This document shows, piece by piece, positions 9,762 to 25,400 of a DNA stretch of 64,000 nt (its first letter is position 1; each line of letters opens with the position of its first letter). A program made the translations under genes and the position numbers. This stretch comes from an uncultured Planctomycetales bacterium (GTDB lineage Bacteria; Omnitrophota; Gorgyraeia; Zapsychrales; JANLHA01): positions 1,262 through 65,261 of the forward strand of contig CAYVEC010000002.1 in NCBI GenBank assembly GCA_964450385.1, written 5' to 3'. Under the pieces are notes generated by a model. The model did not search any database. It saw only the letters and a list, made by a program, of their open reading frames with translations, and was not told the origin of the DNA.

Positions 9762-11291
9762 TTAGGGCGTCTTGACCGTTTCCGTCTCAACCTGTGGGGT
9801 GATGATATGCGGGGTCAAAAAGATCAACAGATCTGTTTTGGCTCCAACAGTAGAATTGTGACGAAACAGACGGCCCAAAAAGGGAATGCTTCCCAAAATG
9901 GGCACCCGTGATTCATTGACAGTTGTCGTGTCCGAGATCAACCCGCCAATCACCAATGTCTCGCCATTTCGAATCATCACCCGGGTCTCGGCCTCGCGCA
10001 CTGTTAATTGCGGGACTTCCGTCCCCTCAACCGTAACATTCGCGTCAGCAATAATCGCTGTGACCCTCGGCTTTAAATCTAATGTCACCATCTCCGCATT
10101 ATTCACATGCGGCGTGACCTCAAAAATAATCCCGATATCCTTATAATTCCACCCTGACACCTGCATTTCGGCCTGATCATCATTATACGTATATTGGGGA
10201 AACGGATACTGGGTCCCCACCACAATTCTTGCCGGCTGATTGTCCAGCGTCACCACCCGAGGATTGGATAATGTATTAATATCGCTCCTCGTCTCGATCA
10301 TCTGCAATAATGTTGTGAACGAACTAAAATCAAGCATGCCGAAGGCAAAAAGATTCTCGGCATCATACGTAATAACGTTTGTTTCACTATCGATACTGTC
10401 GACGGGAATCGACAAAATAAAATTCCCGTCGTTCCCCTTGCGCATCGGAAAGGTCGAATTCCATATTGACCCCTTGCCCGAGGCCTGAAGATTCCAATTG
10501 ATCCCCAGTTTTTCCGTATCACCCAGAGTCGTCTCAATGATCCGTGCCTCGATCAAGACCTGAGGGGTCGTGGCATCAAGCCGCTTGATGACCTTTTCCA
10601 TGAGCTCCAGATTTGTCGGGGTGTCACGAACAATGAGGGAATTTGTCCGTTCATCAAAATTAATACTCCCACGCGCGGTCTTCATCTTATCGAGTGACTC
10701 CACCGCCTTGGCGGCCCGGGCATAGTTCAGCAGAAAGGTGCGCGTCTCGAGCGGTTCCTGCTCCGCCAACACCGCAGCATCCTCTCGGCGTTTCTTTAGA
10801 TTCTCGATCGTCGTGACCGTAATGATATTCTCCCGCCGATCATACCCGTACCCGTAGGTCTCAAGCACGACATCAAGGGCGCGCTGCCACGGGACCCCCT
10901 GAAGTTTGATCGTGACCAGACCCGTGACCTCAGGACCAGCGACGATATTGACCCCGCTCCGAAAGGCCAGGACACGCAGGACATCCTGAATATCGGCATC
11001 ACGGAAATCAAGACTCACCATCCCGTCGAATGAGGCCATCTCCGCAGAGGCAAGGGGAGCGCTCGATTCAGCAGACGTGGCAGAGCTTTCCGCCGTCGCG
11101 GGGTCCGATTCTGCCAGCGCGCCTTCGACCGCCGCGGGCACCTCCGCCTGAGGGGCCTCAGAAACCAAGGCCTCAGGCAATGCGACGTCTGATAACTTAG
11201 GGGTTTCGGACTGAACCGCATCCTGGGCGTACAATGAAATCGCAACACCACATACCAACATCACAATGAGCCCTATGACCACGGATCTCAT
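9762..11291 (-). CDS. pilQ: type IV pilus secretin PilQ
   Basis: The 509-aa product has a signal peptide and a low-complexity Ala/Glu/Ser linker. The C-terminal secretin domain reads 'TLVIGGLISD...VPILGSIPFLGRLF'. Confidence 0.85.
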   Translation of the reverse strand: MRSVVIGLIVMLVCGVAISLYAQDAVQSETPKLSDVALPEALVSEAPQAEVPAAVEGALAESDPATAESSATSAESSAPLASAEMASFDGMVSLDFRDADIQDVLRVLAFRSGVNIVAGPEVTGLVTIKLQGVPWQRALDVVLETYGYGYDRRENIITVTTIENLKKRREDAAVLAEQEPLETRTFLLNYARAAKAVESLDKMKTARGSINFDERTNSLIVRDTPTNLELMEKVIKRLDATTPQVLIEARIIETTLGDTEKLGINWNLQASGKGSIWNSTFPMRKGNDGNFILSIPVDSIDSETNVITYDAENLFAFGMLDFSSFTTLLQMIETRSDINTLSNPRVVTLDNQPARIVVGTQYPFPQYTYNDDQAEMQVSGWNYKDIGIIFEVTPHVNNAEMVTLDLKPRVTAIIADANVTVEGTEVPQLTVREAETRVMIRNGETLVIGGLISDTTTVNESRVPILGSIPFLGRLFRHNSTVGAKTDLLIFLTPHIITPQVETETVKTP

Positions 11292-11654
11292 CTATTCCTC
11301 CTTTATTAAGGTTAACGTCACGGTTTCATCGCCCTTCGTCAGCACCACCGATCCCTGATCGATCGTCTCGATCCGATACAACCCGATCGTCTCGCCTTCT
11401 TTTAAAATCAACCCATTAATGATCGCGACATTCGTCCCGTCATTCCCGCTCATAATCCCCTGCAAGATCATTTCCGATGACAGGAGGTCCTTGTCATAAC
11501 TAACGACGCCCCCTCCCTTGTTCACAAGCGGCCAAAACGGATCACGGCGCCCGCCATCATCATAAACAAAAGGCCCCGGCTCCTCACCGGTCCAGGCGAT
11601 CCCCGCCTGTCCCAATATTGCCAGCGCCAACATGATGATCACTGCCCAGCGCAT
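11292..11654 (-). CDS. PilP-like small periplasmic protein
   Basis: The 120-aa product has a signal peptide and an 'RRDPFWP' motif. The motif resembles the conserved RDPF motif of PilP. It sits between pilO and pilQ with no gap to pilQ. Confidence 0.45.
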   Translation of the reverse strand: MRWAVIIMLALAILGQAGIAWTGEEPGPFVYDDGGRRDPFWPLVNKGGGVVSYDKDLLSSEMILQGIMSGNDGTNVAIINGLILKEGETIGLYRIETIDQGSVVLTKGDETVTLTLIKEE

Positions 11655-11663
11655 CCCGTCCCC

Positions 11664-12275
11664 CTATTTCGGCTCAAAAATAATCACATGAAACGTCATC
11701 ACGACCCGATGGAGTTTATACGCCTGACGCTCATCGCTCGTCATCTCAAGGGCCGCGAGGTCAGCAAGAACCCCCTCGCCCTCAAGCTGATTCATGAAGC
11801 GTCCGAACTCATGATACCCGGCCTTGGCCTCGACGACAATCGGCAACAAATAATACGCCCCGTCCGCGTCCTTCAAAACCGGAGAGGCCAAGACTGTGTC
11901 CGGCACGATCTGCTCGATCCGAACCCTGTTCCCGTTCGCAATCCGTGAAATATCCTCAAGGATGTCCGGTATATCGCCCTTCCCCTTGATCATGCGATCA
12001 ATCGTCTCAAGCTTCTTGTCCAACCGTTTCGCCTCCGCCTGATATTGGCTGATCCGCTTTTCTCCGTCACGGATCGCCTTAGTCTCCGTTTTGAACTGAT
12101 GGATAGCAGTATTCAATTTGCGGAGGGCTCCTACCTGGAACTGCATGATCCCAAAATAATCGACCAAGAGGACAACGACCAGGATCGCTGAAAACAGGGC
12201 ATACGGATGCTTCTCATTGAGCGTGCCCAGTGTCGCCAGGGCGCGGTCCGATATGTCATTTTTTAATTTTAACAT
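11664..12275 (-). CDS. pilO: type IV pilus assembly protein PilO
   Basis: The 203-aa bitopic protein has one N-terminal TM helix followed by a coiled coil. It occupies the pilMNOPQ operon context. Confidence 0.7.
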   Translation of the reverse strand: MLKLKNDISDRALATLGTLNEKHPYALFSAILVVVLLVDYFGIMQFQVGALRKLNTAIHQFKTETKAIRDGEKRISQYQAEAKRLDKKLETIDRMIKGKGDIPDILEDISRIANGNRVRIEQIVPDTVLASPVLKDADGAYYLLPIVVEAKAGYHEFGRFMNQLEGEGVLADLAALEMTSDERQAYKLHRVVMTFHVIIFEPK

Positions 12276-12885
12276 TCTTCGGTTTCTCCACCACAGGAGC
12301 CGGCTGGCTCGCCTTGATCACAAAATCGGCCACCATGGTTCCGCTCAGGTCCCGGCTTCTGATCGACGTCACCTCGATCGTGTTAAAACTCTCGGCAAAC
12401 GACGGCGTCTCCTTGAGCCCGCTCAGGAACTGAGTGATGTTGATCTTCTCGATCTTCTGCTGAGACACCCCGCTCCCCTCAACGAGCAGAACCCCCTCCT
12501 TAAAAACGATCTTCCTCAGCCAAACACCCCGCGTCAAGGCGCCGCTCACATCGTTCATGGCCCGCGACCAGCAGATGTGCTGTTTTCCTAAAATTTTTTG
12601 AATCGAGCTGATCCGCGCCGCGCGTTTTTTTATCTCCTGCTCGATCCGCGTCACATTCTTCTTATTCGGTAAGGCGGCCTCCCATTGCGCCTTATAAATC
12701 TGATGCTCAGCAAGACGAATAAAAATCAGGAGCTGCAACATAATATGAAAAAAGACGAGGAGGACCGCGACCCCTCCCAGGACACCGAAAACGACGTCAC
12801 GAGGGACCACGAGGCCCTTCATCAATCGGCCGAGGCCGTGGCGTTTCTTTTGGAACTGCTGAGGCGTCAGATTAATAAGAATCAT
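12256..12885 (-). CDS. pilN: type IV pilus assembly protein PilN
   Basis: The 209-aa product has a short cytoplasmic N-terminus, one TM helix and a periplasmic coiled-coil plus ferredoxin-like region. It overlaps pilM by 4 nt. Confidence 0.7.
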   Translation of the reverse strand: MILINLTPQQFQKKRHGLGRLMKGLVVPRDVVFGVLGGVAVLLVFFHIMLQLLIFIRLAEHQIYKAQWEAALPNKKNVTRIEQEIKKRAARISSIQKILGKQHICWSRAMNDVSGALTRGVWLRKIVFKEGVLLVEGSGVSQQKIEKINITQFLSGLKETPSFAESFNTIEVTSIRSRDLSGTMVADFVIKASQPAPVVEKPKNVKIKK

Positions 12886-13976
12886 TGATACACCGCCAAT
12901 CCCAGGGCGACCCCCAGCTGACCGCTGACCCGGCGGAACTCGTCGCGCGACACGTTCGGCGCGATCTCAAACCTGCTAAACGGGTCCCAGACCTCAACGC
13001 GCACATCCAAGGAATTCGAAAAAATCCCGGTCACGCCTTTTAACATCGAAACCCCGCCAGTCAAAAAGAGCTTCGCGATAGTAATATTATTTTCAGTAAC
13101 AAAATAGTCAAACGAGAGCCGCAACTCCGTGATCAGATTCGCAATCGAAGCGTCGGCGAACTCCATGACCGCGGCCTCGCGGTCACCGGGGTTCAGTTTC
13201 AACGCCTCAGCCTCAAGGAGACTGATCTCGAGCCCCTTGGCAATGCTCTCGGCAAGGTCCGTCCCTCCCCAAAAGAGGTCCCGGGTAAACTTCGGGCATT
13301 CTCCAACGATAATCGTCAAATTGCTGACCTGCTCGCCCATATCGAGCAAGGCCACCCCGCGCGGAGCCCCGGCATCAACGGAAGCCAATTCTTCTTTATT
13401 GAAACGCATAAAGGCGTTCACGGCGGCCAACGGATTGAGGGTGATCACGTCCGGGCTGATCCCCCACTCCTGACAATGTCTGACGCGCTGATCCACAAGC
13501 TCCTTCTTAGCCGCGGCGAGCATCACGAGCATCTTCTGATTCTTAAAGTGGTTGTCCAAAATATGACAATCCGTATAGATCTGGTCAGGCGGGAACGGCA
13601 GATATTTATCCATCTCATATGTAAAGGCCTTCTGCAGCTCCTCCTTGGACAATCGAGGCATCTCCACATAACGAATGAGCGTGCCCTTGCCTGAGAGGGC
13701 CGTTGCCGGCGAGACCTCCGGGGCCGGTGACACGGCGAGGACGGCCTTAACCGCACTGACCGAGTCGTTATTTCGAACCGGCTCAACCGCCCAGGCCACC
13801 ACCTCGTAGGTGCCGGCCTTCGGCTTCACTGCGATCATCTTACAGGCGTGCGTCCCGATGTCCAGCCCGATCAGGGGCGCGACCGTGGGTTCAGGAATAT
13901 ACCGCCGGACCCATGCAAGATACCAGACCCATATCTTTTTTATTAAGACGACGAGTTGTTCGATTTTTTTCGACAT
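12882..13976 (-). CDS. pilM: type IV pilus assembly ATPase-like protein PilM (actin-like)
   Basis: The 364-aa product has 'LIGLDIGTHACKMIAV', an actin/HSP70-fold phosphate-1 loop. It is first in the pilMNOPQ order. Confidence 0.85.
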   Translation of the reverse strand: MSKKIEQLVVLIKKIWVWYLAWVRRYIPEPTVAPLIGLDIGTHACKMIAVKPKAGTYEVVAWAVEPVRNNDSVSAVKAVLAVSPAPEVSPATALSGKGTLIRYVEMPRLSKEELQKAFTYEMDKYLPFPPDQIYTDCHILDNHFKNQKMLVMLAAAKKELVDQRVRHCQEWGISPDVITLNPLAAVNAFMRFNKEELASVDAGAPRGVALLDMGEQVSNLTIIVGECPKFTRDLFWGGTDLAESIAKGLEISLLEAEALKLNPGDREAAVMEFADASIANLITELRLSFDYFVTENNITIAKLFLTGGVSMLKGVTGIFSNSLDVRVEVWDPFSRFEIAPNVSRDEFRRVSGQLGVALGLAVYQ

Positions 13977-14093
13977 AATTATAAATAGTAATAGTTACAA
14001 GGCTATAAGCAAAAATATTATAGCATCGTCCTCTGATTTCAAAATAAGGAAATGAAATATTTTCAGGCAGAGAGGTGCTCCCTTGGCAGGGAC

Positions 14094-15608
14094 CTAATAT
14101 TTCCTCCAGACCAACACCTGACACATTCGCCGATCGTTTCCGATCATGCCCGGAGGAAGGTTCTTAGCTGTAGCAGGAACCTGATAGATCTTCGGAACCT
14201 GTCCCCCCATATCAAAATAATTTGAAACGATCGTTCCAATAACATTGGTTTGTTTATCAATAGTGATTTTATCCTGGGCGTAAAAAACCCCCATAATATC
14301 GACCTGGGCGCTTTTCCCGAGATTCAGTGATTTCTTTGTCATAATCCCTAGAATATTGTCCGGGAAAGATCGATCTCCGCTTGTCACTAAATTTTGTTGA
14401 ACGACCACATCTCCGGTAAAAACCATTGAACCCTTCCCAGAGTAGACCAAGTCTGTTTTTTTAGAACTCAACGCAAGCGGCGTTGTTCCATTATCAACAT
14501 AAAGAATGCCGTCTACTGTTAGCGCCCCATTCCCATCCCAAGATACGCTCCCTTTTGAATTACCAAAGCTAAACGCGCCCTGATTAGCAAGATTTCCAAG
14601 TTTTGTTTTTTCAGCAGCGGTTAATTCATAACCGGTTGTTTTTAAATAGGCCTCATACGTTGGATACCCCTTATAGGGATCGCTCAACCTGGGGAAAGAA
14701 ATCTCCTCCCCTAAATCAAAGGCCTCACTCGTCCCGTTATCAGAAAAAACATGTCCCGCCCCCGCCGTGCCGCCGTAGCCATCTGTAACATAGACACCGT
14801 CAACCGTCTCTTTATAACCATTGCCTGTGACGTTCGCCTCACCGACGGCAGATGATCCGCTGATGCCGACAATCCCCTTTTTAACGCGCAGGGTCGCATT
14901 CAATGTCTCAACCCACTCATTGTTAAAAAAGACCTGCGGAAGAACTGGCACCTTGGCTTTTAAATAATCCGCGAGCGTCCGATAGTTGTTCCCCACGATC
15001 TCAGCCGTCCCTCCGAGATCAACCGCATAAGCCCCCTCGTCTAAGTCTTCCCCTAAAATAAGGACCGCTCCCCGAATATCCACATTTCCGTTAATAATTT
15101 TCCCTGACATCCCGCTCCCGGCGAAGATCACATACTCCCAGGGAGACAGATTCACCTGTTTAATATAAACTTCAAGACGGGTCACCGCATCCTGGACCTG
15201 CCCCACGGAACGGATCAAAAGAACACTCGCGTCATTCTGGGCGCGCGTGACGGTCACATTATATTGGCCGTCTTGAAAAGGAACATCGGTAAAAAAATCC
15301 TCTGCGGTGACATTGTCCTCAAAAACGACGTTGATCCCATAGATACTCCCATTCCCCCAAGGATTATAGGCCGAATCATTGTTGAGGTCCCAATCCAGGG
15401 CATAGAACGCAGCATCAACCCCTGCCTCGGCGATGTGAAAGCTCTTCATCGACAGACGTTCCCGCTCAGCGAGCCGCAACTCGCTCGTCGCCAGAAGCAT
15501 GAACGCGGCGCCGATGCCGAGGAGAAGGGCGATCACGCAGTACGCGATGATCAACAGGCTCCCGCGCTCATTGTGAAGACACGCTCGCTGCATCTTTTTC
15601 ATGATCAT
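14094..15608 (-). CDS. large minor pilin with a PilX-N-terminal domain (putative tip or adhesin subunit)
   Basis: The 504-aa product has an N-terminal hydrophobic segment. This is followed by 'ELRLAERERLSMKSFHIAEAGVDAAFYAL', a PilX_N-type signature. The large C-terminal region is predicted beta-rich and Gly/Asn/Thr-rich. Confidence 0.55.
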   Translation of the reverse strand: MIMKKMQRACLHNERGSLLIIAYCVIALLLGIGAAFMLLATSELRLAERERLSMKSFHIAEAGVDAAFYALDWDLNNDSAYNPWGNGSIYGINVVFEDNVTAEDFFTDVPFQDGQYNVTVTRAQNDASVLLIRSVGQVQDAVTRLEVYIKQVNLSPWEYVIFAGSGMSGKIINGNVDIRGAVLILGEDLDEGAYAVDLGGTAEIVGNNYRTLADYLKAKVPVLPQVFFNNEWVETLNATLRVKKGIVGISGSSAVGEANVTGNGYKETVDGVYVTDGYGGTAGAGHVFSDNGTSEAFDLGEEISFPRLSDPYKGYPTYEAYLKTTGYELTAAEKTKLGNLANQGAFSFGNSKGSVSWDGNGALTVDGILYVDNGTTPLALSSKKTDLVYSGKGSMVFTGDVVVQQNLVTSGDRSFPDNILGIMTKKSLNLGKSAQVDIMGVFYAQDKITIDKQTNVIGTIVSNYFDMGGQVPKIYQVPATAKNLPPGMIGNDRRMCQVLVWRKY

Positions 15609-15610
15609 CG

Positions 15611-16126
15611 TCAGTTCCTCAGGCTAATGAAAAACTCTGTCTGCCGGGTGATCGGCACCCCGGACACGGTCTTTTGCGCTGTGATATCGATCTCGATCAG
15701 ATCCGGTTCAGTCATCGACGGCGCGCACCCGAAAACCAGAATATCCGACGCCACGACCCGGGTGACGCCCCCTTCTGTCTTAAGCAGCTGATGGGTGCCG
15801 GCATCAAGGATAAAACGGATCTCGGCATCCTCACCGGCTGGCCACGTCTTAAGTCCAGAAATGAATTCTGGCTTTTTAAAAATCATCATCCCGTCCGCAA
15901 GAGTAATGACCCCGCCCTGCCCGGTCTCGCGTAACGTCCCGGTGATCCCGGTCACGGCCCGGCGGATCTCCTGCTGAAGCTCGATCCGCGTCCGGTTCGC
16001 GCTCCAGAAGCGCTGAGCGACATTCGAGGTCGCGGCCATCCCGCCGGCCAAAAAGAGAAAAATAAAAACAACGACCATGACCTCTGGCAAGGTCATGCCT
16101 TGAGTCCCTCGTCCTCGTGTCAGCAT
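15611..16126 (-). CDS. minor pilin (PilW-like) with class III signal peptide
   Basis: The prepilin cleavage motif is 'G|MTLPEVMVVV' with Glu at +5. I moved the start to the internal Met, which removes the overlap with the upstream gene. The ORF track runs to 16186. Confidence 0.6.
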   Translation of the reverse strand: MLTRGRGTQGMTLPEVMVVVFIFLFLAGGMAATSNVAQRFWSANRTRIELQQEIRRAVTGITGTLRETGQGGVITLADGMMIFKKPEFISGLKTWPAGEDAEIRFILDAGTHQLLKTEGGVTRVVASDILVFGCAPSMTEPDLIEIDITAQKTVSGVPITRQTEFFISLRN

Positions 16127-16160
16127 CCGGTGATCCATCCCCAACTCCCCTGCCTCTCCG

Positions 16161-16679
16161 TCAGCGCCGTGCCAAAACCGTCTCAATCGTGACCGGTGAA
16201 TCGATCAACAGATTGCCATTGATATCCTCGCCGTCCAAGGCGCCGTCCAAATTCTGGTCCTCGCCGACCACCCGGCCGTTGTGATTCCGCCAGCAGACCG
16301 CAACGCGGACCGCAAGGACCTCAAGGGGCTCTCCGTTAATAAGCTCCTCAACCGCACCGCTCGCTGCGACATGCGTGTTCACAACACGGACCGTGCCCAG
16401 GCCCTCGACCCCATCGAGCGGAAACGTCCGGCCATTATATGTTGAGATCAGCGTATCAAAATCAGCCTCGCGCATCTCCTCTATCAAGGCGTCAGCCGCG
16501 ATCAGCGCCGTCATTTTCTTCTCGGCCATGTCCCCGGCGGCCGCGATATAAAGATATCCCCGGATCAATCCCAAGATCACGACCGCAAGAATCGCAGCAA
16601 CAAAGATCACCTCGACGAGTGTAAACCCCCCCCTCGTCCGCCGGCCATGGCCCCATCTCTGACACAAACATTTTCTCAT
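16161..16679 (-). CDS. minor pilin (PilV-like) with class III signal peptide
   Basis: The 172-aa product has the motif 'G|FTLVEVIFVAAIL' with Glu+5. Confidence 0.6.
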   Translation of the reverse strand: MRKCLCQRWGHGRRTRGGFTLVEVIFVAAILAVVILGLIRGYLYIAAAGDMAEKKMTALIAADALIEEMREADFDTLISTYNGRTFPLDGVEGLGTVRVVNTHVAASGAVEELINGEPLEVLAVRVAVCWRNHNGRVVGEDQNLDGALDGEDINGNLLIDSPVTIETVLARR

Positions 16680-17404
16680 AGCGCAACCTCTGTCTCAACG
16701 GGAGTCACCCGCTCCGTCTTAATCAATTGTCCTGACGGATCAAAACGTAAAATTTCAACGAGCTGTCCATGCCGATTATACGCCTTTTTATAACGATTTG
16801 GATCGCGGTTCGTCAAATTCCACTCATACATAACCCGCCCGTCATTAAAATAAACAATTCCATGTCCCGTCTCAACCTCATCAGGCACATTTAAGGCATC
16901 ACGATAGTCGATCTCCATCCGAAGGTCCCCGGATGTAAAATATTCTTTCATCCAAACGATCTTACCGCGATCATACTCCTTAATAAAACGCAGCTGCCCT
17001 GTCTTAAAATATTCGCGATACTCCCCGTCCCAGGCCCCATCGCGCCACTCAGCGTTCCCATATGTCTTCGTCGTCGTATTCTCAAAGGCCACCTTGCCAT
17101 CCGGCACATCACCGCTCATATCAAAGATCCGTTCCCCCTGGCTCTTAAAGCGTCCGATCTGTTCTCCGTTCAGCGAGACAAAATGCAGATTGTATGTCCG
17201 GCTCGGATCCATGACCACCATCATCGTCATCTCAACCGACGGCGCGACAATAAGCCGACCCGAGACGGTCTCGTCGTCAACCGCCTCCTCTTGAACGACA
17301 GGCTTTACCGAGACCCCCTCAAGACGGCGCATGACCACAATATTGATCACGCACCCGGTGACCAATGCCACCCCGATCAGGATCCATGTCTTTTTCTTAT
17401 CCAT
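16676..17404 (-). CDS. membrane-anchored MORN/YwqK-type repeat protein
   Basis: The 242-aa product has an N-terminal TM helix. It carries repeated 'G...Y..G.L......Y' units resembling MORN-variant/YwqK repeats. It is embedded between pilA and the minor pilins. Confidence 0.45.
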   Translation of the reverse strand: MDKKKTWILIGVALVTGCVINIVVMRRLEGVSVKPVVQEEAVDDETVSGRLIVAPSVEMTMMVVMDPSRTYNLHFVSLNGEQIGRFKSQGERIFDMSGDVPDGKVAFENTTTKTYGNAEWRDGAWDGEYREYFKTGQLRFIKEYDRGKIVWMKEYFTSGDLRMEIDYRDALNVPDEVETGHGIVYFNDGRVMYEWNLTNRDPNRYKKAYNRHGQLVEILRFDPSGQLIKTERVTPVETEVAL

Positions 17405-17488: not shown

Positions 17489-17926
17489 TTACGGAGCTGG
17501 TTCCGGCTCAGGTTCAGCAGCCGCAACCCTCTCCAAGATACCGCCTGTGGTGATGCTGAAAATAACATCATCAGCACCTTCGGGCTTGGTCACAAGCGTC
17601 GCCACGAATTCATAGGCAGCGTCTGTGGCCGTGGGCCAGGTATACTCAAACCCTGAGATTGTACCTTCGCCTACATACGCACGATTGAGATACGGCGGAT
17701 TGGCCTCCGTCAGATCCGCCAATGCTGTCGGATAATTGCCGTTGTGCGATGACGCATAGGTCTCGGCTGCGGTTGATAGTGTCCGCAGGGTGCTCTGCGC
17801 CAACGCCTCGTTGGCCGTCATCCTGGCTCGCAAGAGGTTCGGGATCGCAATGATCGCCAACAGCGCGATGATCGCGACCACGATCATAATCTCGACGAGC
17901 GTGAAACCACGTTGATACCTTCTCAT
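17489..17926 (-). CDS. pilA: type IVa major pilin PilA
   Basis: The short leader reads 'MRRYQRG|FTLVEIMIVVAIIALL' with Glu+5. A perfect SD 'AAGGAGGG' lies 5 nt upstream of this ATG. The ORF track extends to an upstream ATG at 17986. Confidence 0.82.
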   Translation of the reverse strand: MRRYQRGFTLVEIMIVVAIIALLAIIAIPNLLRARMTANEALAQSTLRTLSTAAETYASSHNGNYPTALADLTEANPPYLNRAYVGEGTISGFEYTWPTATDAAYEFVATLVTKPEGADDVIFSITTGGILERVAAAEPEPEPAP

Positions 17927-18422
17927 CTTTCCCTCCTTGTACGTTGACGTACGTTCTCCCCAACCTCCTGCCGCCTGGCCGGGCATTGCGTCGTCACGTG
18001 CCGAGAGAAAAAAGAAAAGATAACTACATTTATCCCGTCACCCAGACGCCTAATGCCTTAACCATTTGGCCCTAAAAGATTTACCAACTTTTGTATAATA
18101 TCACACAGACAGCGTGTGTCAATCGGTAAACCAAAAACTTCAGACAGAATAAAAAAACCCTATTCACAGGGTCAAATAGGGCACAGTTCCATTATATTAA
18201 AACTTCTTTATTAATGGCAACTGGCTGCCCCTATCCACGATAGTCGGGCCCTCTAGCTTTGTGTCCCATCCTTCCGAATGGTTTACCTTGAGCATTAAAC
18301 ACCTTTTTCAAAGAACGTTCTTCCGACACTACAAGTATAGTCTAGGCCTATCGCAAAAGTCAAGGGCACCAAAAGTAGCAAAAATATAATGATTTAAATA
18401 AAATTTGTAAAAAATGAAGGGA
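17927..18422 (-). promoter_or_regulatory. about 0.5 kb AT-rich non-coding leader and promoter region of pilA
   Basis: No credible ORF lies here and GC is clearly below the window average. A GGCACG-N5-GACGCAA element sits at about 17986-18003 on the minus strand. It resembles a sigma54 -24/-12 box but its spacing is 1 nt off consensus. Confidence 0.4.
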
Positions 18423-20114
18423 TTACTGCATCTGCGCCTCGAGAAGTCCGAGTTTGTCCACTAAGCCGCGGTTCTCCTTCTCTAATATCTCAAGATAACT
18501 CGCCAGCTCTTTCATCTCCATGGCCGCCTCATCACGATCCAAACTATCGGCACGGTATTTCTGCTGGGCAATCTCCAGCGAACCCTTCAACGCCTTCTGG
18601 CGGGCCCGCAAGGCAGCCAGGGCCTGCTCCCTGGCCTGTTTATTTTCAACCGCCTTCACCTTGGCCTGGTCCCTCTCTTCAGCCAAAACCTGCGCCTGCT
18701 TCGCGCCCTCTGCCACATCGGTCTCAAGTTCCTTGAGCCGCTGGCTCAATGATGTCTCCTCGGCTGTCACACGCTCGAGCAGGCGAGACCGATCCGTCAT
18801 CTCCCGCTCCGCCGCCTTCCGCACCGCCTCCCTCGTCTCCTCAGCGAACCGCTGTTTGGCCCGCTGGGCTAAAAGATTCTGATATTCACTGCCGAACACC
18901 TTCTGCCGCATCCTCCCCGTCTCCTCGGCAGCGCCGGCCACGCGTGATGCCATCACCGCGAGCTCCGCCTTAAGCCCTTCCATGTCGCCTCGCAACCGAG
19001 CCGTCTCAGCCTCTTGGGCCGCGATCTCGCGCCCGATATCCGCCGAGTCCGACTGAAGGATCCGCTGCCGCGCAGCCAATTGTTCCTGCTCCCCAACGAG
19101 AACCAGTCGCTGATGGTCTGCCCCCGCGACCCCATCTTCGGCCGAGCGCTTGATCTCAAGGAACCGCGCCCGAGCGCGGAGCAACTCATTATGCTCACGG
19201 ACCTGGGCCCGCAGGCGCTCTAAGGCCTCAGCCTGTCGGTCAAAATCAGCGGTGATCTCCCGACGGACACGGGCCATGTCAGCGCTCGCCTCGCGGAGCG
19301 ATTGACTATACTGACGAAGCCCCGCAACCTTGAGTTCCGCTTCCTTCACCACGGAACGACCCTCACTGCGATAACGGCTCTTATGGCGCTCTAATAATGC
19401 GTATTGATCTTCAGCCTCTCGGATCTCTAGACGAAGGAGCGAGGCTCGCTCCTCAAGCCCCGACCGCTGGCGGAGGGTCTTTTCCTTTAAACCCAGCTGA
19501 TGGGTCCGCTCGACGTCAAGAAGATCGGCGTCGCCCTCTTTCGCAAAGATCCGCCGCCGGACATCCTGGACCATCTCACGGAGCTTAACGCGCTCTTCGG
19601 AATAATAATCCAGCAATTCATTCGGCGCGCGTCGAAGACCCCGCTCCTTAAGGACCTTGATCTCGGGGGTCAGGGCCTCGATCGTCTGCTGAGCGAGACG
19701 CTGTTCCTGAGTCTCCCTCTCGATCCGCTGGGCCACCCCGTCCTTCTCGAGAGTCAAAAAACGCTGGCGTTCTAAAATATTCGCGGCATGTTTGCGAAGG
19801 CCATCGAGTTCCCGGCCCTCGGCCTTGATTGTATTCCTCATCACGGCGGCCTCTTCCATCAAACGAGTCCGCCGATCGCTGAACGAACGCGATTCGTCAC
19901 GAATAAAGATCATCCTTTTTCGAAGGGCATCGTTCTTTCCGGCAAGCTGCTGGTTCTGATCAACCAATCCCTTGATCTTCTCCTGAAGGTCGATGAGGGT
20001 ATATTCAAGGAGGTCATCGGCGCTCATCCCGCCCTGCTGAGCGTGGGCGCCCACGGCCCAGACGCCGACGGCCACGATCGCCACAATGATGTTCAACCCC
20101 CTCTGTCCCCGCAT
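18423..20114 (-). CDS. secreted long coiled-coil protein of unknown function
   Basis: The signal peptide reads 'MRGQRGLNIIVAIVAVGVWAVGAHA'. About 540 aa are then dominated by Glu/Arg/Ala/Leu/Gln heptad-like sequence. It lies between pilC and pilA. Confidence 0.5.
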   Translation of the reverse strand: MRGQRGLNIIVAIVAVGVWAVGAHAQQGGMSADDLLEYTLIDLQEKIKGLVDQNQQLAGKNDALRKRMIFIRDESRSFSDRRTRLMEEAAVMRNTIKAEGRELDGLRKHAANILERQRFLTLEKDGVAQRIERETQEQRLAQQTIEALTPEIKVLKERGLRRAPNELLDYYSEERVKLREMVQDVRRRIFAKEGDADLLDVERTHQLGLKEKTLRQRSGLEERASLLRLEIREAEDQYALLERHKSRYRSEGRSVVKEAELKVAGLRQYSQSLREASADMARVRREITADFDRQAEALERLRAQVREHNELLRARARFLEIKRSAEDGVAGADHQRLVLVGEQEQLAARQRILQSDSADIGREIAAQEAETARLRGDMEGLKAELAVMASRVAGAAEETGRMRQKVFGSEYQNLLAQRAKQRFAEETREAVRKAAEREMTDRSRLLERVTAEETSLSQRLKELETDVAEGAKQAQVLAEERDQAKVKAVENKQAREQALAALRARQKALKGSLEIAQQKYRADSLDRDEAAMEMKELASYLEILEKENRGLVDKLGLLEAQMQ

Positions 20115-20131
20115 CGTCAGCCCCTCCACCC

Positions 20132-21337
20132 CTACTTAATCATCTGAGTCAGACTCAAGATCGGCATAAACAAGGCGATCACGATGAACCCAATGACAAC
20201 GCCCAAGACAACAATGATCACCGGTTCGATAATGCTCGTCAGACTCGCAACAGCGGCATCGACCTGGTCCTCATAAAACTCCGCAAGCTTGGTCAGCATC
20301 TTTTCAAGCTGACCGGATTTTTCGCCGATCGAGATCATCCGCGTCACCATCGGCGGGAAGACCGGACTTTTCATCAGTTGCGTGGCGATGCTATCGCCTT
20401 CACGAACGCTGTTTTTGACCGATTCGATGACGAGCTCGATCTCGCGATTGCCGCTCGTCCTGCCGACGATGTCAAGCGACTCAAGGATCGGCACACCGGT
20501 CTGGAGCAGGATCGCGAGCGTCCGGCTGAACCGGCTGATCACCGCCTTGCAGATGAGTTCTCCAAAAAGCGGGATGCGGAGCATCAGGCGGTCGATCGCC
20601 AACCGCCCCGCCGAGGTCCGATACCATCGCGCCAGAAAGAAAATGCCGACGACCAACGCCCCGAAGATCCACAACAAGTATTTCTTGAGAAAATCGCTCA
20701 TGTCGATCAGGATCTGGGTCATCCAGGGGAGCTCTGTGTCGAACGATTCATAGATCTCGGCAAAGGCCGGGACCATCTTCACGAGCAGGAGCGTGGTGAT
20801 CCCGATGGCGACACACACAACAACCGCGGGATAGGTCAAGGCCGAAATGACCTTGCGGCGCAGTTTCGCGCTTTTCTCAAGATACCCCGAGATCCGGTCC
20901 AGGATCTTGCTCAAGACCCCGCCGGTCTCGCCGACCTTCACCATGTTCACAAAGAGATTATCAAACACCTTCGGATGTTTGGCGAAGGCGGCCGACAGAC
21001 TACTGCCCAATTGAATGTCCTCGCGGAGTGAGCCGATGACCATCCTAAAATACGGATGGGTCATCTGCTCTTCAAGGGCCTCTAGGCACTGGAGGATCGG
21101 AATGCCCGCCTCGACCATCGTCGCAAGCTGCCGGGAAAAAATAACAAGGTCATCGGATTTGACCTTCTTCCGTTGAAAGGAGAACGCAATCCCCTTCTGC
21201 CTCACCTCGACGATCGAAACGACCATCAGGTTGCGGTTGCGGAGCTCGGAGACCACTCCTTTTTCATTATCAGCGGTGACGGAACCCATCACGGTCTGGG
21301 CATTATGGTCCTTCGCGACATACTTATAAGTCGGCAT
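20132..21337 (-). CDS. pilC: type IV pilus inner-membrane platform protein PilC (GspF family)
   Basis: The 401-aa product has two GspF repeats with three TM segments. Confidence 0.88.
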   Translation of the reverse strand: MPTYKYVAKDHNAQTVMGSVTADNEKGVVSELRNRNLMVVSIVEVRQKGIAFSFQRKKVKSDDLVIFSRQLATMVEAGIPILQCLEALEEQMTHPYFRMVIGSLREDIQLGSSLSAAFAKHPKVFDNLFVNMVKVGETGGVLSKILDRISGYLEKSAKLRRKVISALTYPAVVVCVAIGITTLLLVKMVPAFAEIYESFDTELPWMTQILIDMSDFLKKYLLWIFGALVVGIFFLARWYRTSAGRLAIDRLMLRIPLFGELICKAVISRFSRTLAILLQTGVPILESLDIVGRTSGNREIELVIESVKNSVREGDSIATQLMKSPVFPPMVTRMISIGEKSGQLEKMLTKLAEFYEDQVDAAVASLTSIIEPVIIVVLGVVIGFIVIALFMPILSLTQMIK

Positions 21338-21429
21338 TGCAATCCCTCTTATAATATGATGATTACAAAAAATATTTTATCATGTTTGTATCTTCAGAAT
21401 ATTGATTTCTGAGATTTCTTTACGCCGGA

Positions 21430-23139
21430 TCAAATGTCGCTCGTTGCGATCCGAAGGGCCTCCTCAAGACTCGTGAGACCCGCAGCGCACTTTCCGATCA
21501 CATCATCCCACAACGTGACCATCCCTCGGTCCGCGCAGGCGTACTTTTTGATCGCATCCGATGATTCGCCCCGAATGAGCATCGTGCGCACCGCATCATC
21601 GATCTCGAGGACCTCGGTGACCCCGAGACGGCCATGATATCCCGTGCCGCGGCAGATGTCGCATCCCCGGGCGCGATAAAAAATCGTTCCGGGAGGAGCC
21701 TCGACGTGCAACCGCGCCAAGGCATCGGCGGGAACATCCTCGCGCTCCTTACAATGACTGCAAAGACGACGGCAGAGACGCTGGGCGCACACAAGGACGA
21801 GACTCGATGCAACAAGGAACGGCTCAATCCCCATATCAACAAGCCGGGTCAAGGCGCCGGCGGCATCGTTCGTGTGCAGGGTCGAGAGCACGAGCTGGCC
21901 GGTCAGCGCTGCCTTGATCGCAATATCCGCGGTCTCACCATCGCGGATCTCGCCGACCATGACGACGTCGGGACTCTGACGAAGGATCGCACGAAGGGCC
22001 GAGGCAAAGGTCAGTCCGATTTCAGGCCGGGCCTCGATCTGGGTCAACCCCTCGACAAGGTATTCAACCGGGTCTTCGACCGTAATGATGTTCCGGTCAA
22101 CGGTGTTCAATTCATTGATGACCGAATACAAGGTCGTCGACTTTCCACTCCCCGTCGGTCCGGTCACCAAGAGCATCCCGAAGGGTTTATACATCCCCTC
22201 CTTCAGGACCTCGGTAGCCCGCGGCGAAAACCCCAGACCGCTTAATCCCACACTCAAATTTTTCTTATCAAGAACACGCAGGACCACCTTCTGCCCGAAC
22301 GTCGTCGGCAGGAGGGACACGCGGAAATCTACTTCCGTCGAAGAGAACCTCATCTTGAACCGTCCATCCTGAGGGGCCCGCGTCTGCGTAATATCAACGC
22401 GGGACATAATCTTAATTCGAACGATCACCGCGTTCTGATTGTCTTTCGGCACATTCATAATATCTTGGAGAACTCCGTCGATGCGGAAACGCACCCGCAT
22501 CCCTTCGGGGGCCGGCTCGAGATGGATGTCCGAGGCACGTTGGCGAAGGGCCTCTTTGATCATAAGATTAACCAGCCGAATGATCGGCGCCTGTTCGCCC
22601 TCATCGGCCCCTCCGTCGGCCACGTGATTGTCGGCCCGTTCGGTCACGATCTCAAAGTCCTTCAAATCGATATCACGGCTGAGATCACGGACACTGTCCG
22701 TAACCGCACCGCTGTAATAATCCTCGATCGCCTGCATAATATCGGTTTCCGTCCCCATCACCATATCGATGTCGTGCCCGGTAATATTCTTCAGGTCATC
22801 CGTCACAAACACATTGAGGGGATCAGCGATCGCGACCGTGATCGTGTCTTTCAGACGAGAGAGGGGGACAATGTGATACTGCCGGGCGACGCGCTCGGGA
22901 ACCAGATTCTTCAGTTCAGGACTGATCTTATATTTCTTTAAATTAATGAACGGGATCCTGAGCTCCTTCACGAGCGAGGTCAGCATGTCCTCTTCTTTGA
23001 TCAGCCCCTTCTCGATCAGAGCCCGATCCAGAGAGATCCCCCGGCTCTCCTGAAGGGCGATCGCCGACTCGATCTCCTTCTGCGGGATCTTTAATGACTC
23101 GATCAGGGCCTTAATGATCTTTTGCTTTAACGTATCCAC
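21430..23139 (-). CDS. pilB: type IV pilus assembly ATPase, PilB/GspE family (paralog B)
   Basis: The 569-aa product has an N-terminal GspE_N domain and Walker A 'GPTGSGKST'. It carries the tetracysteine motif 'CSHC...CDIC'. Confidence 0.85.
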   Translation of the reverse strand: MDTLKQKIIKALIESLKIPQKEIESAIALQESRGISLDRALIEKGLIKEEDMLTSLVKELRIPFINLKKYKISPELKNLVPERVARQYHIVPLSRLKDTITVAIADPLNVFVTDDLKNITGHDIDMVMGTETDIMQAIEDYYSGAVTDSVRDLSRDIDLKDFEIVTERADNHVADGGADEGEQAPIIRLVNLMIKEALRQRASDIHLEPAPEGMRVRFRIDGVLQDIMNVPKDNQNAVIVRIKIMSRVDITQTRAPQDGRFKMRFSSTEVDFRVSLLPTTFGQKVVLRVLDKKNLSVGLSGLGFSPRATEVLKEGMYKPFGMLLVTGPTGSGKSTTLYSVINELNTVDRNIITVEDPVEYLVEGLTQIEARPEIGLTFASALRAILRQSPDVVMVGEIRDGETADIAIKAALTGQLVLSTLHTNDAAGALTRLVDMGIEPFLVASSLVLVCAQRLCRRLCSHCKEREDVPADALARLHVEAPPGTIFYRARGCDICRGTGYHGRLGVTEVLEIDDAVRTMLIRGESSDAIKKYACADRGMVTLWDDVIGKCAAGLTSLEEALRIATSDI

Positions 23140-23143
23140 GTTA

Positions 23144-24859
23144 TTACCCTATTCCTTCGTCAGGCGCGGTGACACGCAGAACCTCCTCAAGCGAGGTGTG
23201 CCCAGCCACCGCCTTCAAAAGCCCGTCCTCACGCATCGTCCGCATCCCTTCTCGCCGTCCGACCTCTTTGATCTTAAGCTCCCCGGACTGATGGAGGATC
23301 TCTTCACGCACCGGGGCCGTGAGGACGAGAAGCTCGCAAATAACAACCCGGCCGACATACCCAGTATTAAGGCACTCGGGACACCCCCTGCCGCGATACA
23401 GGCGGAACGTCTTCTCACCTAAGAGGGCCGTCAACCCCACCCGGCGAGCGAGCTCCGGCACAACCTCATACGATTCGCGGCATCGCGGACAGATCCGCCG
23501 GACAAGACGCTGCCCGGTGATCGCCAGGACCGAAGAGCACAGGAGAAACGGCTCGATCCCCATGTTCATCATGCGGATGATCGACCCTGCCGCCGTTGTC
23601 GTATGCAGGGAACTTAAGACCAGATGCCCAGTCAGCGCGGCCTTGACCGCGATATCCAGGGTCTCGGTATCCCGGATCTCACCGATCATGATGATATCAG
23701 GATCCTGCCGGAGGATCGAACGCAGGGCCGAGGCAAAGGTCAAACCTACCGACGGCCGGACATTCACCTGATTGATGCCCTTGACCTGATATTCAACCGG
23801 GTCCTCGACCGTGATGATGTTCTTCCCTGGAGAATCGACAAATTTCAGAACGGAATACAGGGTCGTGGTCTTCCCGCTCCCCGTCGGACCGCACGAGAGG
23901 ATCATCCCGTGGGGATGGAGCGAGACCTCCTTGAGACGGGCCAGATCCGACTCCTCAAACCCAAGCTTCTCAAGGTCCAACGCCCCAGCGGATTTGTCAA
24001 GGACGCGGAGCACGATCTTCTCACCGAACGCCGTCGGCAAGACATTGACACGGAAATCAATCTCACGGCCGTTGACCACGGTCTTGAACCGCCCGTCCTG
24101 CGGCAACCGGTGCTCCGAAATATCAAGATTGGAAACAACCTTAATCCGTGAAATGATCGGCTGATGCAGGGCCTTGGCCATCTGATCGATCTCGCGAATG
24201 ATACCGTCGATACGATACCGAATACGGAGCGTCGCCTCCATCGGTTCGATGAACACATCGCTCGCCTTCGCAAGGACCGACTGATGAATGATCGTGTCCG
24301 TCAACTTGATCATCGGGGCGTCCTGGACGATGTCCGTCACCTTAACATCACCCACCCCGTCACTCTTCACGAGCTCGCCGTCCTCAGAGATGTCTTTAAT
24401 GATGTCCTTAAGGGCCGCGCTCGTATCGGCAGAATAATATTTATCGATGGTCTGTTGGATCTGGGCCGAACGACCGATGATCGGAATGATGTTCAGGCCT
24501 GTCAGGACCTGGACATTATCGATCGCAAAAATATTGAGGGGATCGGCCATGGCGAGGGTGAGGTTATCCCCCATCCGCGAGACCGGCATGATCTTGTTTT
24601 TCTCGGCGACAGCGCGCGGGATGATCTTGACGACCTCGGGATCGATGCGCAGGCGCGAGATGTCGATCGGCGGCATCCCAAGCCCCTCGCTTAACGCATG
24701 GGTCAGATCGTCCTCGGTCACCAGCTTCATCTGAACCAGGATCCGGCTCAGCTCGCCCCCGGATTTCTTTTGCTCATCGAGGGCCCGCTGAAGGTCCGCC
24801 TCTTTGATGATCTGATCCCTGATCAGGACCTGCTGTAAACGTTCCTTGAGCGAGAACAT
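23144..24859 (-). CDS. pilB: type IV pilus assembly ATPase, PilB/GspE family (paralog A)
   Basis: The 571-aa product has an N-terminal GspE_N domain and Walker A 'GPTGSGKTT'. It carries the tetracysteine motif 'CPRC...CPEC'. Confidence 0.85.
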   Translation of the reverse strand: MFSLKERLQQVLIRDQIIKEADLQRALDEQKKSGGELSRILVQMKLVTEDDLTHALSEGLGMPPIDISRLRIDPEVVKIIPRAVAEKNKIMPVSRMGDNLTLAMADPLNIFAIDNVQVLTGLNIIPIIGRSAQIQQTIDKYYSADTSAALKDIIKDISEDGELVKSDGVGDVKVTDIVQDAPMIKLTDTIIHQSVLAKASDVFIEPMEATLRIRYRIDGIIREIDQMAKALHQPIISRIKVVSNLDISEHRLPQDGRFKTVVNGREIDFRVNVLPTAFGEKIVLRVLDKSAGALDLEKLGFEESDLARLKEVSLHPHGMILSCGPTGSGKTTTLYSVLKFVDSPGKNIITVEDPVEYQVKGINQVNVRPSVGLTFASALRSILRQDPDIIMIGEIRDTETLDIAVKAALTGHLVLSSLHTTTAAGSIIRMMNMGIEPFLLCSSVLAITGQRLVRRICPRCRESYEVVPELARRVGLTALLGEKTFRLYRGRGCPECLNTGYVGRVVICELLVLTAPVREEILHQSGELKIKEVGRREGMRTMREDGLLKAVAGHTSLEEVLRVTAPDEGIG

Positions 24860-24862
24860 GCC

Positions 24863-25312
24863 TTATGATTTCCGGTAATATTTCGTGATCGCCTCTTTAA
24901 TATCCGCGCCCGTCGCGACAAAGGTCTGAACGCTGCACCCGGTCAAGGCCTCAACATCCTCAACGGCAGTCATGTTCAACGGATCGGCCATGGCCAAGGT
25001 CAGGCTCTTTCCGATCTTATCGATCGGGATCAGACAAAACCGGCGGCAGACATCTTCAGGAACCGCGTCGAGAACTTCCTGATCGATCTCATAATTCGCC
25101 AAAGGCAAGTAAGGAAAACCATATTGACAGGTCAGGGCCTGCGCGATATCCTCTTCGGTGGCGAATTTCAGTTCGACGAGGACCTCACCAAAGAGCCCGC
25201 CTTTTTCTTTTTGAAAGGCCATGGCCGCGAGAACCTGATCCGCGTTGATCACGCCTCGGTCGATGAGGAGCTCGCCCAAATGTTTATTTGACGCCCGCTT
25301 TAAATTCTTCAT
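24863..25312 (-). CDS. standalone GspE_N/MshEN-like domain protein (candidate c-di-GMP binding)
   Basis: It runs about 150 aa from the internal Met 'MKNLKRASNKHLGELLIDRGVINADQVLAAMAFQ'. This fits the MshEN motif pattern RLGxxLxxxGxIxxxQLxxALxxQ. It has no ATPase domain. Confidence 0.55.
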   Translation of the reverse strand: MKNLKRASNKHLGELLIDRGVINADQVLAAMAFQKEKGGLFGEVLVELKFATEEDIAQALTCQYGFPYLPLANYEIDQEVLDAVPEDVCRRFCLIPIDKIGKSLTLAMADPLNMTAVEDVEALTGCSVQTFVATGADIKEAITKYYRKS

Positions 25313-25400
25313 CCATCCCCCGATCACCCAAAATCTTGCGCTTATTGTACTACAGAACACACCTTCGCTCAATTTATAGTATTATTAATGCTACTATATT

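Follow-up and report, generated by a model that had tools for sequence, protein, structure and literature searches.

We analyzed a 64,000-nucleotide stretch of contig CAYVEC010000002.1 (assembly GCA_964450385.1, phylum Omnitrophota), hereafter the window, and found that the first gene of its type IV pilus operon encodes a stand-alone MshEN/GSPII domain. This gene, which we call the orphan, occupies positions 24863..25312 of the minus strand (149 codons plus a stop) and is immediately followed by two paralogous genes for pilus ATPases, pilB1 and pilB2. With somewhat better than even confidence, we propose that its product would be a detached receptor subunit of the PilB1/PilB2 motor for cyclic di-GMP (c-di-GMP), a second messenger. 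We read it this way because at the predicted ligand-contact sites it kept Gly and Gln residues now missing from PilB1 and PilB2 alike, its gene adjoins pilB1, a natural fusion joins the two, and a c-di-GMP riboswitch lies in the same cluster. The Omnitrophota pilus motor would then probably receive its c-di-GMP signal from a separate subunit. Since the orphan has start and stop codons of its own and so forms a polypeptide apart from PilB, it must act in trans, as the initial annotation of this DNA had suggested.

By all of the sequence and fold criteria applied, the orphan is a member of the MshEN family, and its product consists solely of one complete MshEN/GSPII domain. The Pfam profile PF05157 matched the C-subdomain (residues 64-147) with 76.7 bits against a gathering score of 23.1, and the NCBIfam profile NF053729 ('c-di-GMP_motif') matched residues 12-61 with 57 bits against a cut-off of 38. 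Full-length sequence matches in the PDB included the Geobacter PilB N-domain (5zfr, E 3.7e-27) and VcMshE (5htl, E 6.5e-14). An AlphaFold2 (AF2) model built on 56 orthologues (pLDDT 87.5) comprised a four-helix bundle (residues 9 to 64) followed by an alpha/beta subdomain of three strands with flanking helices, the latter corresponding to MshEN_C (T2SSE_N1-like, residues 64-147, positions 24872..25123 on the minus strand). In a Foldseek comparison, the top ranks were all GSPII domains, with template modeling (TM) scores of 0.85 for PilF GSPII-A (root-mean-square deviation, rmsd, 1.6) and 0.72 for VcMshE bound to c-di-GMP. PilF GSPII-B, XpsE-N, and the Xanthomonas PilB-N/PilZ complex also ranked among them, and the Foldseek probability was 1.00 for 9g1w, 5htl, 8pdk, and 2d28. 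Weak matches extended to the N1 domain of EpsE/GspE bound to GspL (2bh1 and 4pht). On this evidence the domain is free-standing, as first annotated. Its description as unusual held for the arrangement beside a pilB pair but not for single-domain MshEN proteins as such, given that Met-initiated proteins of 140-200 amino acids (aa) made up 43 of the best 150 cluster representatives at 50% identity. Free-standing forms of the domain are thus common among metagenomic proteins. Separately, reading by eye placed orphan-like MshEN domains in two larger proteins, P0163 (723 aa), where the fusion partner combines a membrane segment and an extensive C-terminal region with a PilZ-like RxxxR...DxSxxG stretch, and P0155 (454 aa), where it is fused to a DnaA-like AAA+ module.

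The full open reading frame (ORF) spans 24863..25372 of the minus strand and would encode 169 aa if read from a TTG codon. An internal ATG at 25312 yields the 149-aa product (MKNLKRASNKHLGELL...YYRKS), and we consider it the real start, as the initial annotation had supposed, because, among the 120 closest relatives in the database, 109 have lengths of 148-151 aa and align from residue 1. The NCBI gene model P0001 has 165 aa rather than 149 aa, its extra codons falling at window positions 25313-25360 of the minus strand. It is probably mis-annotated and 16 codons too long, since orthologues begin at the conserved Met. A sigma70-like promoter match (TTGAGC-17-TACAAT, 9/12 positions, a consensus match only) lies upstream of the coding sequence at 25344..25372 on the minus strand, inside the putative N-terminal extension and in the 88-nucleotide (nt) gap after rodA. 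An artefact, be it a wrongly called ORF or a pilB gene broken by a frameshift or a split, is so improbable as to be negligible. The product does resemble a PilB N-terminus, and pipelines at the JGI label its relatives PilB, but the same 148-151-aa gene with its own stop recurs in more than 100 independent assemblies (49-80% identity among genome loci), and the PilB1 that follows is complete, with an MshEN domain of its own. The pseudogene or split-gene reading was rejected on this conservation across assemblies. Relatives of the orphan in databases were nearly all named Candidatus Omnitrophota.

The evidence for the proposed ligand binding centers on a tandem 24-residue motif. Motif I (residues H11-Q34, HLGELLIDRGVINADQVLAAMAFQ, positions 25211..25282), a 5-residue spacer (KEKGG, 25196..25210) of the length found in VcMshE (PMC5013675), and motif II (residues L40-Q63, LFGEVLVELKFATEEDIAQALTCQ, 25124..25195), all on the minus strand, aligned without gaps to VcMshE R9-Q61 as a single 53-residue module. 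In motif I, VcMshE residues R9, L10, G11, G18, L25, L29, and Q32 correspond to orphan residues H11, L12, G13, G20, V27, M31, and Q34, respectively. In motif II, R38, L39, G40, G47, L54, L58, and Q61 correspond to L40, F41, G42, K49, I56, L60, and Q63. The second related stretch that had been noticed after the first is thus motif II, at the correct 5-residue spacing. In this alignment, the RLG glycines and terminal glutamines of VcMshE are retained, and the Leu-cluster positions stay hydrophobic. The tandem motif with its 5-residue spacer is unique to the orphan gene within the window; written as a regular expression, the relaxed 24-residue motif is unspecific and also matches membrane helices.

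We tallied residues at these positions in 45 orthologues that are 49-80% identical. The glycines at position 3 of the motifs, G13 and G42, were each present in 45/45 orthologues, as was Q63 at position 24 of motif II, and Q34 was present in 42/45. All six hydrophobic cluster positions (L12, V27, M31, F41, I56, and L60) held large hydrophobic residues in every orthologue, with Leu or Ile at the L12 site in 45/45, I56 in 44/45, and L60 in 42/45. Substitutions in VcMshE give a measure of what these residues contribute: G11L left no detectable binding, G40I caused a 72-fold loss, Q32A and Q61A cost ~10-fold each, single Leu-to-Ala changes cost 10- to 38-fold, and Leu-to-Val about 4-fold (PMC5013675 Suppl. 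Table 1). Ile at Leu-cluster positions is tolerated in PilF constructs (PMC12002112). Taken as a whole, VcMshE (5HTL; Wang et al. 2016, PMC5013675) resembles the orphan in its two-subdomain fold, in the spacing of motifs and spacer, and in its RLG glycines, terminal glutamines, and six cluster hydrophobics, which the orphan keeps or replaces conservatively. VcMshE differs in being fused to T2SSE, in having Arg at both position-1 sites, and in having Gly at the second turn, whereas the orphan is unfused and has H11, L40, and Lys at the corresponding sites.

These differences qualify the original claim that the N-terminus fits the 24-residue motif. The fit held at the Gly, Gln, and hydrophobic sites; it failed against the 2016 consensus at position 1 of both motifs (H11 and L40) and at K49, with L40 covered only by a later extension. 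In 2024, Neissner et al. widened the consensus to (R/K/L)LG (PMC11731258) on a domain, PilF GSPII-B (8PDK), that binds c-di-GMP with a dissociation constant (KD) of 6 nM while carrying K167 and L196 at its two position-1 sites. There, L196 stacks on guanine, L196R binds 4-fold worse, K167L binds at 2 nM, and the double substitution Q190E+Q218E abolishes binding (PMC11731258). Given L196 at position 1 of PilF motif II and the (R/K/L)LG consensus, L40-F41-G42 of the orphan would represent the GSPII-B solution, and L40 was Leu in 45/45 orthologues. The two domains are alike in having no position-1 arginines, in motif II (LLG in GSPII-B versus LFG), and in that GSPII-B serves a type IV pilus ATPase, as we propose for the orphan. 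They differ in that GSPII-B is the middle of three covalently linked GSPII domains (Neissner et al. 2024) and is ~24% identical to the orphan. Position 1 of motif I varied among the 45 orthologues (H in 19, Q in 17, K in 3, L in 2, and also Y and P), and none of the published variants we examined had His or Gln there. The turn Gly at position 10 was kept in motif I (G20, 42/45), while the motif II site was Lys (K49) in 39/45. The AF2 model retains the helix turn at K49, and Lys occupies the same turn site in an otherwise canonical RLG..RLG PilB from another phylum (locus L046, KLKFATEED). Overall, the orphan shows five of the seven sequence features of the MshEN subclass that binds c-di-GMP, the position-1 and position-10 sites being mixed.

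The ATPases next to the orphan present the opposite pattern at the same sites. The pilB1 gene (23144..24859, minus strand, 571 aa) begins 3 nt past the orphan stop (TAA GGC ATG), exactly the gap given at first annotation, and is followed by pilB2 (21430..23139, minus strand, 569 aa), whose product is 43% identical to PilB1. Both proteins combine an MshEN domain with a T2SSE ATPase according to Pfam and NCBIfam. In VcMshE numbering, the PilB1 N-domain of the window has G11 replaced by Q, G40 by S, and Q61 by G, and that of PilB2 has I, D, and E at these sites. Across the phylum, PilB1 (n = 42) never had Gly at the G11 site (Q/K/L), had Ser at the G40 site in 39/42, and carried Gly or Ser in place of Q61 in 35/42. 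In PilB2 (n = 39), the G11 site was Ile or Leu, the G40 site Asp or Glu, and the Q61 site Glu in 36/39. Both paralogues retained intact Walker, Asp-box, and tetracysteine motifs, and PilB1 has intact Walker A/B, Asp, and His boxes. The claim that the PilB N-domains are degenerate therefore stands at the residue level and phylum-wide but not at the level of the NF053729 profile, which still passes PilB1 (51 bits, over the cut-off of 38) and gives PilB2 24.5 bits. Because this profile fails to separate the orphan from PilB1, we did not use profile scores to argue degeneracy. As a side observation, the first His of the PilB2 His box (TGQLVLSTLHT, residues ~413-423) was replaced in 28 of 29 scorable orthologues, whereas PilB1 had TGH in 37/37; judging from these residues, catalysis may be altered in the PilB2 paralogue.

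Gene order ties the orphan to pilB1 with little variation. Among 45 Omnitrophota genome loci, the order orphan-pilB1-pilB2-pilC was kept wherever the contig reached, and the orphan adjoined pilB1 in 44/45, the remaining contig stopping before pilB1. Starting in reverse from PilB1 in metagenomes, and taking loci in which the upstream sequence ran to 480 nt or more, we found the orphan immediately upstream in 75/75. On its other side in the window are the cell-shape genes mreB-mreC-mreD-mrdA-rodA, so that the orphan separates these from a complete type IV pilus cluster. Compared with the window protein (n = 34), the orphan averaged 70% identity, the ATPase cores of PilB1 and PilB2 averaged 71% and 69%, and their respective N-domains 64% and 56%. 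The orphan evolves as slowly as the catalytic cores and more slowly than the PilB N-domains. The same arrangement was not found outside Omnitrophota (loci L046-L074), which instead had ordinary PilB with a fused canonical MshEN; in some of these loci, MshEN was fused to unrelated domains away from pilB.

In one Omnitrophota lineage, the two proteins are naturally fused. Three fusions of 754-767 aa (P0132, P0271, and P0272), from three independent assemblies, join an MshEN domain resembling the orphan (43% identical) through a low-complexity linker to an ATPase resembling PilB1 (48% identical). Loci L155 and L156 have pilB2 and pilC after the fusion and contain no separate orphan. Such a fusion is classical Rosetta-stone evidence, at the level of sequence, and suggests that the orphan works physically with PilB1. 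An (MshEN)2-T2SSE architecture is listed by Wang et al., for example Cthe_1107 (PMC5013675 Suppl. Table 4). These ATPases and the Omnitrophota fusions share with the window both the parts and their order, a sensor-type MshEN ahead of a PilB with its own MshEN, and they differ in being one chain, the first domain in the window being a separate polypeptide. In 34 of the 48 loci with enough sequence (e.g., L011 11071-11508, L032 10364-10774, and L082 7394-7837), pilB2 and pilC are separated by a second MshEN-only gene of ~150 aa, whose product is 35-43% identical to the orphan. All seven of its products that we examined kept both Gly and both Gln, with L, F, or Y at position 1 of motif II. This second gene is absent from the lineage of the window, where the gap between pilB2 and pilC is only 92 nt (21338-21429).

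Independent evidence that the cluster responds to c-di-GMP comes from a c-di-GMP-I (GEMM-I) riboswitch aptamer at 18213..18297 on the minus strand, between the genes for a coiled-coil protein and the pilin. Rfam RF01051 matched over its full length with 58.9 bits (gathering score 35), and the G20- and C92-equivalents are G and C, as in riboswitches of the c-di-GMP type. A terminator-like hairpin with a T-run follows the aptamer (18157..18182, minus strand) and, from folding and sequence reading, is a candidate expression platform. The same riboswitch occurs in the same place in loci L001, L003, L006, L007, and L014, with a GGC variant in L009 and L023. Its position upstream of the cluster's pilin gene implies that the organism uses c-di-GMP and aims it at this pilus. 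GEMM-Ib riboswitches of the cGAMP type instead carry A at the G20-equivalent specificity position. The G found there, together with symmetric half-sites that keep G and Q in both, makes it very unlikely that the orphan senses another nucleotide such as 3'3'-cyclic GMP-AMP (cGAMP), even though motif I position 1 is atypical and VcMshEN is reported to bind cGAMP (PMC5013675). Promoter-like matches lie before the aptamer (18334-18363) and after the terminator (18095-18122). We dropped an ON/OFF reading of the riboswitch from the minimum free energy fold of aptamer plus terminator, as alternative pairings were ambiguous. At L023 14145-14198, ~130 nt downstream of the GGC variant, a group II intron (RF02001) begins and is truncated by the end of the locus.

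A further c-di-GMP-related gene adjoins the orphan in many relatives. In 24/45 loci, the deepest branches included, the gene just upstream encodes a membrane protein of HAMP-GAF-GGDEF architecture (e.g., L009 5556-7004, L011 5544-6974, L041 4473-5906, and L042 5488-6939), and in L009 this gene overlaps the orphan start by 4 nt. Scanning the window and the 45 loci with regular expressions for GG[DE]EF, HD-GYP, and PilZ motifs returned nothing, a misleading null because Pfam found GGDEF domains with degenerate A-sites beside the orphan. In two of the deepest-branching relatives, pilT was seen between the GGDEF gene and the orphan (L041 5920-6981 and L044 5918-6967). The 64 kb window itself encodes neither a PilZ protein nor PilT.

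That the orphan is a c-di-GMP receptor directed at another target (the HAMP-GAF-GGDEF* sensor, PilM or PilC, or an adhesion or exopolysaccharide output), or that it serves as a local c-di-GMP buffer, is in our judgment unlikely. This neighborhood lends the idea some credence, with the GGDEF gene, degenerate as it is, next upstream in 24/45 loci and either overlapping or near-adjacent, and with the second MshEN-only gene abutting pilC in many relatives; moreover, there are stand-alone MshEN proteins, PA3740 among them, that act outside of pilB operons. Yet adjacency to pilB1 is universal, while the GGDEF neighbor is missing in about half of the loci, the window among them, and the natural fusion partner is PilB1 rather than a GGDEF protein or PilC. 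Tentatively, and at clearly lower confidence than the receptor role alone, the extension motor may be organized as a modular local c-di-GMP complex with one or two free MshEN subunits, two site-less PilBs of which one has an altered His box, a membrane HAMP-GAF dead-GGDEF sensor, and the riboswitch in parallel. If so, the second-messenger sensor of the motor would be an exchangeable subunit rather than a fused domain.

Several observations weigh against the orphan being a receptor for c-di-GMP at the motor. The A-sites of the neighboring GGDEF domains are degenerate (GDHEF, AEHEF, and GDSEF, with SGDEF only in L041), and these domains have no RxxD I-site; from these motifs, the HAMP-GAF-GGDEF protein is probably a sensor or scaffold rather than a cyclase. 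The gene is absent from the window, in whose 64 kb no active diguanylate cyclase was seen. With PilB1 scoring 51 bits to the orphan's 57, the argument from degenerate PilB N-domains rests on few residues. Within the orphan, position 1 of motif I varies among orthologues and so is without the constraint expected of a key contact, and K49 lies outside even the relaxed turn rule, [GAS] (PMC5013675). The best match in structure and in N-terminal sequence is PilF GSPII-A (9G1W; Neissner et al. 2025, PMC12002112), a proven non-binder. GSPII-A did not bind even after the perfect consensus was restored, owing to an N-cap-stabilized extra helical turn and tight contacts between its subdomains (PMC12002112), and by analogy a good motif would not guarantee binding by the orphan.

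The chief alternative is a ligand-independent adaptor, a detached GSPII domain which, like GSPII-A, would aid assembly of the PilB1/PilB2 ring or docking to PilM or PilC. We regard this as a possible but less probable explanation. It would account for the closest fold being that of GSPII-A, for the resemblance of the orphan's motif II to that domain (GGSLAEVLV...IAQ), for the unconstrained position 1 of motif I, and for the MshEN_C subdomain being the most invariant part of the protein, and the case of GSPII-A shows that a motif alone is insufficient for binding. What it would leave unaccounted for is the retention of the ligand-contacting residues. The fold is stable without the RLG Gly and terminal Gln, as in PilB1 and PilB2 of the same genomes, and VcMshE G11L and G40I stay stable; nevertheless, each of the four Gly and Gln sites is retained by 42-45 of the 45 orphans and by all seven second-copy proteins. 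GSPII-A, which is also the first GSPII domain ahead of others as in the fused Omnitrophota homologues, is without exactly those residues. It has H33, A41, and R62, that is, no Gln at the motif ends and Ala at the second Gly, whereas the orphan keeps Q34, G42, and Q63. By sequence reading, the residues preceding H11 (K-R-A-S-N-K) also contain no N-cap box of the kind that blocks GSPII-A. Finally, the riboswitch ties the cluster to c-di-GMP.

We return to the orphan as a proposed receptor subunit of the PilB motor. Every computationally testable part of this interpretation held, and the riboswitch, fusion, adjacency, and GGDEF context point the same way. In the mechanism we envisage, the four-helix N-subdomain would bind one extended c-di-GMP, as VcMshE and PilF GSPII-B do. 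Two hydrophobic clusters would be formed by L12/V27/M31 and F41/I56/L60, with L40 and either H11 or K10 stacking on the guanines. The backbone amides of G13-E14 and G42-E43 would read the Hoogsteen edges, and Q34 and Q63 would hold the ribose-phosphates. Once the ligand is bound, the orphan might use its MshEN_C subdomain to dock without a covalent link on PilB1, perhaps also on PilB2 or PilM, and could in this way supply the first domain that is missing relative to an (MshEN)2-T2SSE ATPase. Pilus polymerization would be coupled to the c-di-GMP level, and the riboswitch would set the supply of pilin.

Two further systems place this proposal in context. Pseudomonas aeruginosa PA3740 is, like the orphan, a free-standing MshEN without an ATPase and is a known c-di-GMP binder. 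It differs in its highly diverged C-subdomain (T2SSE_N1), and in the literature we examined we found no description of it as a member of a pilB operon. In Xanthomonas, whose PilB N-domain/PilZ complex (7LKM) matched the orphan in fold, c-di-GMP information reaches a non-binding PilB N-domain through separate proteins in the FimX-PilZ-PilB relay. There, FimX senses through its EAL domain and a PilZ protein serves as adaptor, with no MshEN domain in either role. The cyanobacterial protein CdgR was considered as a stand-alone MshEN receptor and dropped, being a ComFB-type protein with a different binding mode. In the literature searched, we found no description of a phylum-wide detached MshEN sensor beside two site-less PilB paralogues.

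The remainder of the pilus cluster lies entirely on the minus strand. After pilB1 and pilB2, the order is pilC, a coiled-coil gene, the pilin gene, a MORN gene, two pseudopilin genes, a gene for a 504-aa protein, pilM, pilN, pilO, and a secretin gene. The platform protein PilC is encoded at 20132..21337 (Pfam T2SSF, E 5.6e-69) and the type IV pilin at 17489..17986 (QRG|FTLVEIM..., Pfam N_methyl), with a likely start at Met21 (nt 17926) judging from the translation. Genes from the MORN protein to the secretin, identified from Pfam matches, span 9762..17404. Among these, the MORN-repeat protein (16676-17404) is embedded among pilin and pilM genes, as is the 504-aa protein (14094-15608), which had no Pfam or NCBIfam match. 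The coiled-coil protein (568 aa, 18423-20129) between pilC and the riboswitch had no family match either; it is weakly conserved (23-32% identity) and found in the same place in the closest relatives.

[quoted passage not shown] The literature we examined on pilus and secretion ATPases places it within the ATPase chain. If our interpretation is true, c-di-GMP control of a PilB motor could be delivered in trans by the same MshEN fold. The orphan is a small and easily expressed test case for the (R/K/L)LG consensus with new position-1 residues, His and Gln, and the co-occurrence of split and fused pairs in one phylum amounts to a ready-made experiment on the role of covalent linkage. Many Omnitrophota have an ultra-small size and may depend on a host, and pili likely matter for their attachment. 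The orphan may offer a first handle on pilus regulation in these uncultured bacteria.

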